NCBI GenBank assembly: GCA_033764315.1
Contig: JANRJA010000092.1
Location: 1-64,000, forward strand
Direction: 5' to 3'
DNA: 64,000 bases
Source: Oculatellaceae cyanobacterium bins.114
GTDB taxonomy: Bacteria > Cyanobacteriota > Cyanobacteriia > Elainellales > Elainellaceae
The position numbers and the translations under genes are program-made. Below, piece after piece: positions 46,159 to 63,287 of the stretch (the first letter of the stretch is position 1; each line of letters starts with the position of its first letter). The notes beneath the pieces are model-generated. The model had not been told where the DNA came from and ran no database searches. It saw nothing but the letters and a program-made list of their open reading frames with translations.

Positions 46159-46325
46159 TAACCTGAGTTCGGGATAAGGATTTTGGCGGTTGAAACCGCG
46201 GTTATACGAGCAGAACCAACCTGCCTCTGTTCAGTAAACCTTTAACTTTGCCAGTCCGCGAAGGCGGACTTCGCTCTGGTAGCCGCGAATTTATTCGCTA
46301 GGCTGCTTTAACCTAACTAACGTTA
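46159..46325. repeat. Host dispersed repeat with TAACCTGAGTTCGG...CCTAACTAACGTTA imperfect terminal IRs
   Basis: Imperfect IRs; internal GTCCGCGAAGGCGGAC hairpin resembling the ~10905 and ~45090 copies. Confidence 0.7.
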
Positions 46326-46394
46326 GGTACTGTAGATTTTGATATGGGCAGTACTGGACTCGAACCAGTGACATCCTGCTTGTAAGGCAGGCGC
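46302..46394 (-). repeat. att direct repeat (displaced tRNA-Val 3' part plus 43-bp flank)
   Basis: 90/93 identical to 63195-63287. Confidence 0.95.
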
Positions 46395-46485
46395 ATCCCT
46401 ATTCTAAAAGGCTCTGGAGTGCCTATAAAAGCGTATTCCATCCTGTAGGGGTCTATGCTCTGGACTAAACTCTGGACTGGTTACG

Positions 46486-47112
46486 ATGGCTTGTCTGACC
46501 CCTGATCCAACAGACAGGACGATGAAGAAAATAAGAGTCAAAGTCAGTATGACCCCAGAAATTAAAAGGGCACTAGAGGAAGTTTCGGATTATTTAGGAT
46601 TACCTTTGTCCCAACTGCTGTTAGACTCTGCAATTGATCGTTGGCTACACAAACGCCCCCCTATCACTAAAGATCTAGGGCTATTATGCGATCGGCTTAG
46701 GTCGCTAGAGTCAATCCTAAATAAGCTAGACCAGCCCCAAACCTCTAAACCTCAACCCATCTGCAAGCCTAAGAGATCCGCTCTAGACCCCCTCAACCCT
46801 GTACTGCCTAATCAGTCTCTCTCTGCGCTCACAACGATTGACCAAGCCCTTACAAATGGCAAGCCTTTACACATTGACAACCTTGTGAGCAGGTTTCGAG
46901 GTGACAAGGTCATGAAAGCTCGGTTAAGTCAGTTGGGTGGAAGGGATGGAAAGCTGTTTGAGGGCAGTCTAAGCCACGCCCAAAAGGTTGAGGAGGTTAC
47001 AGTCCGACTAGACCCAGAAGGGTTGTCTTGGATGCCAGTGGACAAAGATCGGCTTTACTGGAAACAGATGATGGCTAACGAGTTTTGTAAGGCTGTATTA
47101 ACTAAATCCTAA
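46486..47112 (+). CDS. Hypothetical protein, possible N-terminal ribbon-helix-helix
   Basis: RVKVSMTPEIKRALEEVSDYLGLPLSQLL pattern. Confidence 0.55.
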   Translation: MACLTPDPTDRTMKKIRVKVSMTPEIKRALEEVSDYLGLPLSQLLLDSAIDRWLHKRPPITKDLGLLCDRLRSLESILNKLDQPQTSKPQPICKPKRSALDPLNPVLPNQSLSALTTIDQALTNGKPLHIDNLVSRFRGDKVMKARLSQLGGRDGKLFEGSLSHAQKVEEVTVRLDPEGLSWMPVDKDRLYWKQMMANEFCKAVLTKS

Positions 47113-47619
47113 AGGTCATCAACTTTTTAGGAGGATGCGATTGCGTCAATTTAGGATAATATTTCGGTGGATGTGCACCCTGACCATCGGCAATGAAGCC
47201 ATGAACTGTCACACTGAGATGAAAATGCAAACCACTCACTGACGATCGCTTCAGTCCTATTTAGTCCAGTGCTAGTCCAGAGGTATTAACACTAATCCTA
47301 GAAACTAATCTCAGCAATGATTAGAAACTCATTGATTATTTGCACATCAGGCAGTTAGTCAAGCCAAAAATGGCTGAAACCATTGAAATCTCGTTATTGT
47401 GCCAGTTTGGGCATTAGTCCAGAGTCCTGAGAGCAGTCTTATTGGATTAAACGTCTAGACTGTTCAGTCTAGTTTGCGATCGCAAATCCCTACACACTTC
47501 AGATTATCTTCCTACATAAGATTTTTACCAAACTAAGCACGATATCTCCGGGATTCTACTAGGAATTTTGTAGGATGCTTCAGATTGTTGCAACCCAGTA
47601 ACTCAAGTGAGTCGGAAAT

Positions 47620-48273
47620 ATGGCGAAAGAAGAATACAGGCAACTGATTAAAGCTAAAGGGCACTTACCCACTGGTATTTTGGGTCAAGACTTTCCCGTA
47701 GACTTCATCGTCAAGTTTTTAGAGGACAATTTAGCCCTTGGCGAGTCTTTGCTCGATGTAGTAGGGGTTAGGTTTCAGGGAAAAAATACATTTTTAGTTC
47801 TAACATCCAAAAGGCTTATCTGCGTTTCTATAAAACCACACACTATTCTTGGGAAAAACTTTGAACTACCGCTGACCTTAAATTACAACCAAATAGAGAA
47901 AATTTTTATCGCACCAAAAAGCGGAGTTCTTGTAAAAGGAAAAAGCACTGAGTTTAGTATGTATTTTGTCCAACTCAAGGAAGTGCAAAACTTTTCAGAG
48001 CCACTTGAAAAATTAGGGATTAAAGTTGAAACACTCACTGCCATTCCTTCAGACAAGCATGAGAAAAGAATAATGCTTCAGGGGACTGCTGTGGTCATAA
48101 TCATAGTAGTTCTATTTGGTAGTTGCATTTATAGATCAATCACCAGTCCTGAACCTGTCAACCCTGGCGCAAGCTCAGAGGAGATTGAAGCGTGTTTAAG
48201 GCGATATATTCAGGGTAGTACCGTAGAACCTCATGAAATCGAAGAAGGACGTAGAAGGTGTGCCCCTCGTTAG
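47620..48273 (+). CDS. Bacterial PH-like domain membrane protein (cargo)
   Basis: LVLTSKRLI PH-like strand; C-terminal TM. Confidence 0.55.
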   Translation: MAKEEYRQLIKAKGHLPTGILGQDFPVDFIVKFLEDNLALGESLLDVVGVRFQGKNTFLVLTSKRLICVSIKPHTILGKNFELPLTLNYNQIEKIFIAPKSGVLVKGKSTEFSMYFVQLKEVQNFSEPLEKLGIKVETLTAIPSDKHEKRIMLQGTAVVIIIVVLFGSCIYRSITSPEPVNPGASSEEIEACLRRYIQGSTVEPHEIEEGRRRCAPR

Positions 48274-48358
48274 CTTTTAGGGTTGAAATTACAAAATTCT
48301 TTTATCCCTAGATTATTAGTTTGCGTCAGTTTCCTTGCTAACCTCCAAAGCAGCAAAA

Positions 48359-48386
48359 AGGGTGTCTTTACTAGTAAAGACACCCT
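48359..48386. terminator. Perfect 28-bp palindrome between convergent genes
   Basis: AGGGTGTCTTTACTAGTAAAGACACCCT. Confidence 0.6.
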
Positions 48387-48416
48387 CTGATGATTAGAGT
48401 CACTAGTTAGCCAGCT

Positions 48417-61544: not shown

Positions 61545-61612
61545 ATTTTAGGTCTTCTGTTTGTCTACGCTTGTAAATACCCATCTAGCTAAAGAAAACG
61601 AACTGGTAAGTT

Positions 61613-62122
61613 ATGCCGCGTGAGCGTTTCACAACTGAAGAGTGCCGTCGAGGTGGGCAGCACCCAGCATCAGAATTGCAACGAGCGATCGCCACTCAAA
61701 CTATTCGACGCACAAAACCTTGGGAGCAATCAACAGGTGCCAAGACCATTAAAGGTAAATTTCATAGCTCCCTTAATGCTTATAGCGGATGGCATAAGAC
61801 TGTAGAGTCTAGCAGTCTTGATTATGAATCGGAGTGCCAGAAGCTGAGATCAGCAGTTGCAGAGCTACAGAAATTAGCACCAAAGCATTGTTTTAAGGGA
61901 GTTATCCAGGGTTGTGAGGTTAGCCTAAAAGTTGTCATTCAAGCCAACCTAAAAGACGGTGTTGATGGTCGGGATCACTGGCTAACAGCAAAAGTTAAAG
62001 CTCAAATAAACCTTGCAGTTAGGGGTCATTCTGATAAATTTGAGCTTGCTAAGCCAATTTGCGAGGAAATGAAACGAAAAGCGCATGAGGCGATCGCTAC
62101 AATTTTGGAAAGATTTCAATAG
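61613..62122 (+). CDS. Hypothetical protein with STGxKT.xGK..S..NA motif
   Basis: KPWEQSTGAKTIKGKFHSSLNA. Confidence 0.6.
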   Translation: MPRERFTTEECRRGGQHPASELQRAIATQTIRRTKPWEQSTGAKTIKGKFHSSLNAYSGWHKTVESSSLDYESECQKLRSAVAELQKLAPKHCFKGVIQGCEVSLKVVIQANLKDGVDGRDHWLTAKVKAQINLAVRGHSDKFELAKPICEEMKRKAHEAIATILERFQ

Positions 62123-62142
62123 GAACCTGTCAGCCAAGCTCC

Positions 62143-62364
62143 TTAATTTTCGTTAAGCTCTTTTTGAATCTGTTCATACTTGCCGCAGTCTATTTGATTG
62201 CCAGCATCGCAGGAGGATTTATAGTACTCCATTAATCTAAATTGCGCTTCCCTGGCTTGAATCTCAATCGGACTAAGTGGCGGATTAGTAGCAGCGTTCC
62301 AAATAGACCCGATCACAAAGAACGCCACCAATCCCGCAATGCTCCATTTAAGCCATTTACTCAT
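62143..62364 (-). CDS. Small single-TM protein
   Basis: N-terminal TM; C-terminal Cys pair. Confidence 0.6.
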   Translation of the reverse strand: MSKWLKWSIAGLVAFFVIGSIWNAATNPPLSPIEIQAREAQFRLMEYYKSSCDAGNQIDCGKYEQIQKELNEN

Positions 62365-62370
62365 AAAGGA

Positions 62371-62904
62371 TTACAACATCCCGTCTATTCCAAAGTTATT
62401 GCTATTCAGATCTGTACTCTTGGTTTGTCCTTGTTGGACAGTAACAGGCGTCAGCCAGTATCTCTGTAGTTGATCGTCGCCAGAAGCCCAGTTAACACCA
62501 AACAAAAGATAGTCTCCCGGACTAATTCCTTCTATTGAGTAGTATCCATTTACACTGCTTTGCACTGGCGTTCCACAACTTTGCTTGGCAAAATCTTCCA
62601 TTTCGCTTACAGCAGATAAATGCCTCATTTCGTTCACACCTGGAACGTCTGAAATTTCAGAGGAGTTTCTATCTCGAATTTCTTTGAATTGCTGAAAAAG
62701 ATTTGACGGACAAGCAAACACGCTCATTCCTCTAATAAGTTCAGAACCTACGTCCGATGCAGAATTTAGATAAACGTAACCATCTAATTTGGCTTGAAGC
62801 TGAGGGCTTTCAGTCGTGGGAGCTGAAGCAGTCGGTAGAGGCTGACTAGTTCCACTGCATCCTGTGATAGCCGCAATGCAAAAAACCAAAGCAATTTTCT
62901 TCAT
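62371..62904 (-). CDS. Lipoprotein
   Basis: MKKIALVFCIAAITGC lipobox. Confidence 0.75.
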   Translation of the reverse strand: MKKIALVFCIAAITGCSGTSQPLPTASAPTTESPQLQAKLDGYVYLNSASDVGSELIRGMSVFACPSNLFQQFKEIRDRNSSEISDVPGVNEMRHLSAVSEMEDFAKQSCGTPVQSSVNGYYSIEGISPGDYLLFGVNWASGDDQLQRYWLTPVTVQQGQTKSTDLNSNNFGIDGML

Positions 62905-63194
62905 AATTAGACCTATCTCTGTTTCTAATATTCCTAAACAGAGATAAAAATCAGCAGTAAAACTGAATCTTTATATTTAGTTTCAAAAGTGTTGTTACTG
63001 TTTGCCTGCTGCCAACTTGAATTTCAGTAGTAGTCACGTTAGGGTTGACCCTCGATATCTGGACTACATATGGACTGTTTTGATAGCCTGTTGTTGTAAA
63101 CCAGGGGTCAACGACAGTAATTTGTCCTGACGACACTAATTTGACTTCAATGACACCAATTTGTCACCGATGACAAATAATGTGTCACTGTAGA

Positions 63195-63287
63195 GCTGCT
63201 TTAACCGAACTAACGTTAGGTACTGTAGATTTTGAGATGGGCAGTACTGGACTTGAACCAGTGACATCCTGCTTGTAAGGCAGGCGC
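63195..63287 (-). repeat. att direct repeat overlapping the intact tRNA-Val
   Basis: 90/93 identical to 46302-46394. Confidence 0.95.

Follow-up and report, generated by a model that had tools for sequence, protein, structure and literature searches.

A CyRepA1-type replicon between tRNA-Val repeats in a cyanobacterial chromosome, with no recombinase gene detected

The closest described counterparts of the element treated here are the AICEs, integrative and conjugative elements of actinomycetes, which, in the part of PMC2440964 that describes them, measure 10.9-17.3 kb, integrate at the 3' end of a tRNA gene in a manner that keeps the tRNA functional, live in filamentous hosts, and are built from modules for replication, regulation and transfer, the transfer protein being of FtsK/SpoIIIE type and encoded between small hydrophobic proteins. 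These traits, those of transfer in candidate form, recur in an element bracketed by repeats of a tRNA-Val gene in the first 64,000 nucleotides of contig JANRJA010000092.1 of Oculatellaceae cyanobacterium bins.114 (assembly GCA_033764315.1), a stretch referred to below as the window. Like an AICE, the element possesses a replication module of its own, although its replication protein (Rep) belongs to the CyRepA1 family and not to RepSA or RepAM. It further differs from AICEs in that it has neither a tyrosine integrase nor an excisionase, in that its ATPase matches FtsK and TcpA at the level of the fold only, with no Pfam FtsK_SpoIIIE match, and in carrying an M23 hydrolase together with a ParM system. 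It resides in a cyanobacterium and not in an actinomycete, as seen from the HIP1-rich DNA and from relatives named Leptolyngbya, Trichocoleus, Pseudanabaena and Phormidium, and a transfer function is predicted only.

Cyanobacterial plasmids with CyRepA1-family Reps provide a second point of comparison, among them pSYSA (Slr7037) and the Synechococcus elongatus plasmids pIITB4_1 and p11801_4. The pairing of DUF3854 with a helicase, given in the relevant part of PMC10079941 as the domain pair of the cyanobacterial plasmid Reps CyRepA1 and CyRepA2, is found in the window in the same layout, with a helicase above the CyRepA1 cut-off, a DUF3854 part, and 39-41% identity to two S. elongatus Reps. 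In contrast to these plasmids, the copy in the window is chromosomal, lies between attachment-site (att) repeats in a tRNA gene and has its Rep split in two; moreover, the S. elongatus plasmids carry none of its other genes. A third likeness concerns the Tcp conjugation system of pCW3. In structure, the 481-aa ATPase comes closest to the coupling protein TcpA of that system, and a peptidoglycan hydrolase is likewise encoded nearby; scans with Pfam, NCBIfam and PHROGs revealed here neither a relaxase nor a VirB4-like ATPase nor any further homologue of a Tcp protein.

With respect to the integrated state, two further classes have to be considered. Cis-mobilizable elements (CIMEs) and other decayed tRNA islands, as delimited in the section of PMC5704250 devoted to them, have kept attL- and attR-like repeats and are devoid of integration genes of their own, exactly the situation in the window. 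The same definition includes, for CIMEs, the loss of the transfer genes as well, whereas the element retains apparently intact replication, partition and transfer-like modules, the block of membrane proteins, ATPase and M23 peptidase being full length and conserved. Islands of the Islander type share with it the intact tRNA gene (tDNA), the displaced 3' fragment and the anticodon-centred block of identity; their definition, as worded in that portion of PMC4383910, requires an integrase gene inside the island, so that the element in the window would be rejected.

The integration site and the search for an integrase

The single tRNA gene in the window, tRNA-Val(tac) with anticodon UAC (63238-63310, minus strand; ARAGORN, Rfam 74.8 bits), is intact and represents the integration target. 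A direct repeat of 93 nt is found at 46302-46394 and 63195-63287, identical at 90 of 93 positions (97%; blastn E=1.7e-42), with a start-to-start spacing of 16,893 nt and an interior of 16,800 bp; blastn revealed no third copy and no tandem island in the 64 kb. The repeat comprises tRNA positions 24-73 (50 nt) and the 43 nt on the 3' side of the gene, an extension in which 41 of 43 positions agree. The anticodon stands at tRNA position 34 (ARAGORN), and the identity block begins 3 nt ahead of the anticodon stem. Two of the three mismatches, 63207 and 63236, are located downstream of the tRNA, and the remaining one, 63254, corresponds to T-loop position 57, occupied by A in the intact gene and by G in the displaced copy, a purine in both cases. 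The right repeat (attL-like; repeat search, blastn) was presumably supplied by the element, and the left repeat (attR-like; repeat search, blastn, Rfam), consisting of the displaced 3' 50 nt of tRNA-Val and the 43 nt downstream, is presumably the original chromosomal copy. Its displaced fragment, 46345-46413, is still scored as a tRNA by Rfam, with 33.3 bits against 74.8 for the intact gene. An intact tRNA gene and a displaced fragment of the same tRNA thus occupy the two ends in direct orientation, which is the part of the Islander signature present here. Ordinary chromosomal genes form the flanks, coding for a VTT/DedA protein (45299-46144) and a DUF2227 protein (from 63494; both Pfam). A search of PLSDB for near-identical DNA returned solely the tRNA itself, in enterobacterial plasmids, and no tRNA-Val fragment was present in the related free plasmids L001 and L002 from S. 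elongatus or in the other related loci checked.

Close to the right end, at 63111-63190, lies a tandem array of four units of about 20 bp with GACA-N6/7-TGTC-like half sites (Tandem Repeats Finder, motif search). It ends 5 bp from the right att repeat; Tandem Repeats Finder reported a period of 20 and 2.9 copies for 63119-63175, and the motif [CT]GACA-N2-3-AAT-N-TG occurs four times in the 64 kb, every time within the array. Its location is where arm-type or accessory-protein binding sites would lie, and it is a candidate for such sites. The array was not found in loci L001-L008, that is, it is common to no related plasmid or locus and is therefore assignable neither to Rep, as iterons, nor to recombination. 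A frame of 61-70 aa on the minus strand across the array (62951-63163) gave a Pertussis_S1 match below the Pfam cut-off of 21.3 bits (16-17 bits, E=0.006-0.01), which is most likely due to chance on repetitive DNA.

The search for a recombinase covered the element in several ways. All 26 open reading frames (ORFs) inside it were scanned against Pfam at E<=0.1 and also against NCBIfam and PHROGs, and a six-frame Pfam scan at E<=0.05 took in 150 of the 177 stop-to-stop segments of at least 40 aa; the remaining 27 comprise seven that went through Pfam at E<=0.1 and 20 that are long ORFs of the first scan, taken there from the first start codon. In none of these scans did Phage_integrase, Resolvase, Recombinase, rve/DDE transposase, HUH or Cas1 match within the element, and even at a Pfam E<=0.1 there was no weak recombinase match. 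An internal tyrosine integrase, as demanded of Islander islands and AICEs, was accordingly not found, and neither was a xis gene. Elsewhere in the window, the 26 large ORFs in 1-46000 contained no integrase (Pfam, E<=1e-5). One should add that 11 of the 26 ORFs of the element lacked a Pfam match at E<=0.1 and that most matches of the others were weak and below cut-off.

A distant relative does carry an integrase. In L006, a contig from a cyanobacterial metagenome-assembled genome, a ParM-like gene and the membrane-protein/ATPase module occur as in the window, and the order is tRNA-Ser, 124 nt, a 359-aa ORF designated P0023, rep on the opposite strand, ParM and ATPase; both gene order and gene orientation agree with those of the window. 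In place of P0023 the window has two ORFs of 177 and 73 aa, on the strand that an integrase would use. P0023 on its own gave Phage_integrase at E=0.0069 (Pfam) and, as a single sequence against the sequences of the Protein Data Bank, no match. Its family, with 1074 representatives at E<=1e-3, is far more telling: Phage_integrase matched at E<=0.01 in 43 of the 67 aligned members (Pfam), the family profile recognised the XerC-like entry 4a8e (E=7.7e-17) as well as IntI4, XerD and XerA, and the alignment shows no variation at R307, H330 and Y339 and hardly any at R219 and K246. To judge from these sequence signatures, the family clearly consists of tyrosine recombinases. With this family in hand the window was searched again. 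By tblastn, the best relative of P0023 in the window was no better than E=0.4, and a hidden Markov model of the 67 members, run with filters off over all six frames of the window, yielded three hits, each of negative score and none of them within the element.

P0023-family tyrosine recombinases of 30-32% identity are also encoded on small circular plasmids, L007 from Microcystis aeruginosa NIES-298 (17,272 bp) and L008 from Picosynechococcus sp. PCC 8807 (13,153 bp), from which it follows that integrase-bearing small episomes exist in the phylum. Both also carry VapE/DUF3987 primase-helicase genes, and no partial tRNA was detected in either (Rfam, E<=1). Instead of being plasmids in the classical sense, L007 and L008 may represent integrative elements in the excised state.

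The first-pass annotation of this DNA, made from the letters and their ORFs, had described 93-bp direct repeats, identical at 90 of 93 positions, that bracket an element and leave tRNA-Val intact, and had claimed that no tyrosine or serine recombinase is encoded inside. Repeat search, blastn, ARAGORN and Rfam agree on the former, and the Pfam, NCBIfam, PHROGs and six-frame scans were all negative as to the latter. A divergent integrase or a clear remnant, which had been named beforehand as the finding to speak against the claim, was sought with lax Pfam thresholds and with the P0023-family profile and was not found.

Replication, partition and a transfer-like module

The replication protein is encoded by two ORFs on the plus strand. 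The downstream one (58454-60832, 792 aa) is the helicase part and scores 215.9 bits against the NCBIfam CyRepA1 model, whose cut-off is 200; the upstream one (57676-58461) is the DUF3854/Toprim-like N-terminal part (Pfam DUF3854, E=5e-32). A Rep above the NCBIfam cut-off and an N-terminal DUF3854, the two marks of a CyRepA1 plasmid replicon, are thus both present, DUF3854 being placed on a separate, overlapping ORF. The overlap amounts to 8 nt, with the ATG sitting across the upstream stop. Residues 1-255 of the first ORF align to residues 1-254 of a fused relative of 1052 aa, P0177, and residues 2-790 of the second ORF to its residues 259-1048, such that the split falls at the domain linker and no residues are lost. 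A fused Rep of at least 1027 aa is the rule in the family (113 of the 119 relatives listed), and, judged by the alignment, the split Rep may still work as two chains. In a tblastn search, 160 plasmid records, mostly cyanobacterial, matched the Rep, the best being the two S. elongatus plasmids of 12-13 kb at 39-41% identity. At E<=1e-20, 199 relatives were present in the protein database, with identities reaching 65% and names such as Trichocoleus, Pseudanabaena, Leptolyngbya and Phormidium; contigs of 12-20 kb are frequent among them, and one contig, from Leptolyngbya sp. BL-A-14 and bearing P0211, measures 7.19 Mb. The relatives nearest in sequence stand at 50-65% identity. By family assignment, the element is a CyRepA1-family plasmid replicon.

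Partition appears to be served by a ParM-like actin-type ATPase (55215-56288, minus strand), for which Pfam ALP_N scored above its cut-off (E=5e-8), a PHROGs partition protein matched at E=5.9e-19, and NCBIfam ParM matched at E=1.2e-9, below its cut-off. The actin-like ATPase of a ParMRC system is thus present, and no ParR or parC was identified by any tool applied. Near this gene a short tandem array is found at 54921-54951 (12 bp, 2.7 copies), and in L006 an array of 8 bp and 6.8 copies lies upstream of ParM at 7401-7454; these short arrays are possible parC-like centromeres.

The third module is dominated by an ATPase of 481 aa with a P-loop and N-terminal hydrophobic helices (51857-53302, minus strand). 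Its AlphaFold2 model has a mean pLDDT (predicted local distance difference test) of 79.3, and TcpA of pCW3 headed the Foldseek matches (E=2.7e-6), with the FtsK motor and EssC also near the top, at modest TM-scores of 0.33-0.44. Sequence matches are weak and include EssC/EccC and a Streptomyces FtsK/SpoIIIE protein (E=4e-4). The FtsK/SpoIIIE domain is consequently a fold-level match accompanied by weak sequence matches, with no match to Pfam FtsK_SpoIIIE, and the modelled structure points to a candidate DNA translocase or coupling protein. The family is small, with 22 proteins at E<=1e-5, whose names include Leptolyngbya and Thermoleptolyngbya; the ATPase is full length against 21 relatives, and many contigs of rep and ATPase relatives measure 12-20 kb.

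Around the ATPase, again on the minus strand, a conserved block is arranged in the order 134-aa membrane protein, 169-aa protein, ATPase, two hydrophobic proteins of about 70 aa, and M23 peptidase. The first two ORFs (53289-54195; hydrophobic segments assigned by eye) are kept beside the ATPase in three to four of the four relative loci L003-L006, across which a search of genome contigs placed the ATPase at 34-53% identity. The two small hydrophobic ORFs between ATPase and peptidase (72 and 71 aa; 51368-51798) both recur in L003, and one of them in L005. The M23 peptidoglycan endopeptidase (415 aa; 50244-51491; Pfam Peptidase_M23, E=1.7e-32) is found in L003 as well, and in L005 it is fused to a lysozyme domain. 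No relaxase and no VirB4-like ATPase matched in Pfam, NCBIfam or PHROGs, which sets the element apart from integrative and conjugative elements and conjugative plasmids of the type IV secretion system kind. From gene content and conservation we infer that the block of membrane proteins, ATPase and M23 peptidase may serve transfer. In L003 (Leptolyngbya sp. FACHB-8, contig51, 14487-21320) the ATPase/M23 module and a fused DUF3854 Rep adjoin Cas3 and Cas_GSU0053 genes, an arrangement that recalls CRISPR-bearing CyRepA plasmids such as pSYSA; within the 21 kb covered, L003 has no tRNA and no integrase.

In composition, the element resembles its surroundings. HIP1 sites (GCGATCGC) number 28 in the 16.8-kb interior (1.67/kb) and 72 in the other 47.2 kb (1.53/kb), against 0.81/kb expected from shuffles of the whole window; the GC content is 0.464 vs 0.476; and the tetranucleotide correlation between element and chromosome is r=0.875, chromosomal segments ranging over 0.76-0.92. 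Two more statements of the earlier annotation are borne out at this point: the element is a replicon, given a CyRepA1 match above the NCBIfam cut-off with a DUF3854 ORF alongside, and it looks native to cyanobacteria, a view supported by the frequency of HIP1 sites, by the likeness in tetranucleotides and by its place in the CyRepA1 family.

Origin of the integrase-free state

We tentatively put forward the following account, which falls somewhat short of probable. A plasmid-type episome of 16.9 kb from a lineage of filamentous cyanobacteria, with its CyRepA1 Rep, ParM-like partition gene and membrane-protein/ATPase/M23 module, would have entered tRNA-Val(UAC) by recombination of the tyrosine-integrase type at the anticodon-loop sublocation, bringing along a functional replacement for the 3' half of the tRNA. 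After integration, the integrase module would have been lost or replaced by a low-GC lipoprotein cassette between the tRNA and rep, the element remaining otherwise intact. It would now be stranded, with exit only via an integrase acting in trans or via RecA recombination between the 93-nt repeats.

As to the mode of entry, a displaced 3' fragment, a working 3' half supplied by the element, and a block of identity that begins just before the anticodon stem together constitute the signature of tyrosine-integrase recombination. In this context one should recall that, in the portion of PMC4383910 on site preference, no recombinases other than those of the tyrosine class are known to target tDNAs, and that 2083 islands are listed there with anticodon-centred attP sites. 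The tandem array 5 bp from the att repeat also counts for entry of this type. As to the later fate of the integrase, the slot between the tRNA and rep holds the 73-aa membrane ORF and the 177-aa lipoprotein-like ORF (62143-62904, minus strand; delimited by synteny with L006, lipobox assigned by eye), neither of which matched a family in Pfam, NCBIfam or PHROGs. The GC content of the slot (62143-63194) is 0.409 vs 0.464 for the element, and the lipoprotein has a GC content at third codon positions (GC3) of 0.34 vs 0.40-0.52 for chromosomal genes. The split rep is a second departure from the family norm and is counted in favour of the same account. The first-pass annotation had offered three mechanisms, namely mobilisation in trans, loss of the integrase and entry by homologous recombination; the evidence is unable to settle between them and leans towards loss on three grounds: the integrase that a relative has at the syntenic position, the low-GC cassette that fills this position in the window, and the split of rep.

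Several observations weigh against loss. L006, the relative with the integrase, is a distant one, its ATPase being 34% identical and its rep belonging to a different family (DUF3987). The plasmids nearest by Rep, L001 and L002, and locus L003 have no integrase in the DNA covered, and the integrase-free plasmid may consequently be the ancestral state. Furthermore, no remnant or scar of an integrase is visible in the element, which is densely coded, its largest non-coding gaps of about 500 bp leaving no room for a sizeable integrase pseudogene. Finally, the other modules look intact, with a full-length ATPase and a Rep split without loss of residues; one would not usually expect this of an element in decay, and it would equally fit an active element that is served in trans.

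That the element never carried an integrase, its att sites and arm array being recognised by the tyrosine integrase of a helper element that targets tRNA-Val elsewhere in the genome and integrates and excises it in trans, seems to us somewhat unlikely, although it would accommodate several features at once: two intact att repeats that agree at 90 of 93 positions, a unique four-unit array of protein-binding appearance that abuts the core, the integrity of all other modules, and a host-like composition in HIP1 density (1.67 vs 1.53/kb) and tetranucleotides (r=0.875 vs 0.76-0.92). Mobilisation of integrase-less elements in trans and in cis is documented for other phyla in the pertinent part of PMC5704250. 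However, the 26 large ORFs in 1-46000 of the window contained no integrase by Pfam, no helper is known, and a minimal satellite does not typically possess genes of its own for replication and partition and transfer-like genes, as the element does. Alternatively, the last integration could have been a single crossover of the Campbell type, effected by host RecA between a free plasmid with a 93-nt tRNA-Val patch and the chromosomal tRNA-Val, such that the element shuttles between free and integrated states without a site-specific recombinase. The patch is indeed long, including 43 nt past the tRNA (41 identical) that an integrase does not need, where the repeat length is usually 8-60 bp according to the review of integrative and mobilizable elements in PMC5704250, in its passage on repeats. 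The element's own Rep and partition genes make a free form plausible, as do the many contigs of 12-20 kb among rep and ATPase relatives, and the nearest database plasmids lack an integrase. What this scheme leaves unexplained is why a plasmid should bear the 3' half of a tRNA, with its start immediately ahead of the anticodon stem and with the capacity to restore a functional tRNA; such a patch is the product of integrase-type att sites, so that an integrase would still be needed in the past of the element. The related free plasmids L001 and L002, moreover, have no tRNA-Val fragment, and we regard RecA-mediated entry as unlikely.

Very improbable, in our judgement, is a recombinase of an undescribed family among the unassigned ORFs (the 208-aa ribbon-helix-helix protein, or the 169-aa and 179-aa proteins beside rep), or integration by the Toprim-like DUF3854 part of Rep. 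The 11 ORFs without a Pfam match at E<=0.1 and the many matches below cut-off would leave space for one, and divergent enzymes can escape detection, as illustrated by the integrase of L006 with its Pfam E of only 0.0069. On the other hand, no unassigned ORF exceeds 217 aa, none outside the transfer module is conserved in L003-L006, the 208-aa protein has a single homologue, with which it shares no catalytic-looking pattern, and no recombinase match emerged even at E<=0.1.

On the favoured account of loss after integration, the missing integrase is probably a matter of ordinary decay, and, should the element be merely a stranded copy, it would exemplify ordinary mobile-element decay. More interesting than the missing integrase seems a family of AICE-like episomes in filamentous cyanobacteria, which appears to be undescribed. 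Native conjugation and episome biology are poorly known in cyanobacteria. Searched by title and opening of the abstract, the literature gave no description of a CyRepA-type replicon in a tRNA gene and none of an FtsK-type transfer (ATPase/M23) module on cyanobacterial plasmids. It is a doubtful prospect that such a family is at work, that is, small CyRepA1 plasmids that pass between cells by a single FtsK/TcpA-like translocase and, encoding no recombinase themselves, alternate between a free and a chromosomal state by means of a resident tyrosine integrase or of RecA acting across the unusually long 93-nt patch of tRNA-derived homology. Should the module prove to move DNA, cyanobacteria would have in it an equivalent of the TraB-type transfer of Streptomyces, and filamentous strains a possible natural route of gene delivery. 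The case also bears on whether integrated plasmids persist and move without an integrase of their own, and elements of this kind are discarded by island-finding tools; Islander, by its definition in PMC4383910, requires an integrase gene.

Further genes of the element and of the window

Next to the left att repeat, a protein of 208 aa with an N-terminal ribbon-helix-helix is encoded at 46486-47112 (plus strand; Pfam NikA-like/RHH_3, E of about 0.005, below cut-off). It has one homologue, P0024, at 51% identity, and no plasmid match; the Atlas gave sub-threshold leads only, and the alignment with P0024 displays no conserved catalytic-looking pattern. A regulator and a recombination accessory factor are its candidate roles. 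The following ORF of 217 aa (47620-48273, plus strand), with a low GC3 of 0.36 and no match in Pfam, NCBIfam or PHROGs, is probable cargo. In the gap between divergent small ORFs, at 49516-49638, a 16-bp palindrome, TCCCGGTATACCGGGA, occurs in three perfect or near-perfect copies (repeat search; direct family D4, inverted pairs I5, I12 and I13), which might act as an operator or as a cis-acting site for transfer or replication.

Upstream of rep, two small ribbon-helix-helix regulators of the Arc/CopG-like kind are encoded on the plus strand at 56419-56664 and 56937-57158, with weak Pfam RHH matches and PHROGs Arc-like repressor matches at E=2.6e-5 and 1.9e-4. Downstream of rep follow two ORFs of 179 aa (coiled-coil) and 169 aa (61005-62122, plus strand), for which weak coiled-coil matches stayed below cut-off and no relatives were found in L001-L006.

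The chromosomal part of the window contains several genes with TIR domains. A TIR_2 and AAA_35 protein (21114-22679) adjoins an AAA_35 and TPR protein (18349-21165), and a 1027-aa protein encoded at 34754-37837 combines several TIR_2 domains with a Cache sensor; these genes look like defence or signalling NTPase systems. At 4974-6194, a protein with a DACNK sensor and a DisA-type diadenylate cyclase (DAC) domain is encoded, adjoining a response-regulator/oxidoreductase fusion and a histidine kinase that binds cyclic nucleotide monophosphates.

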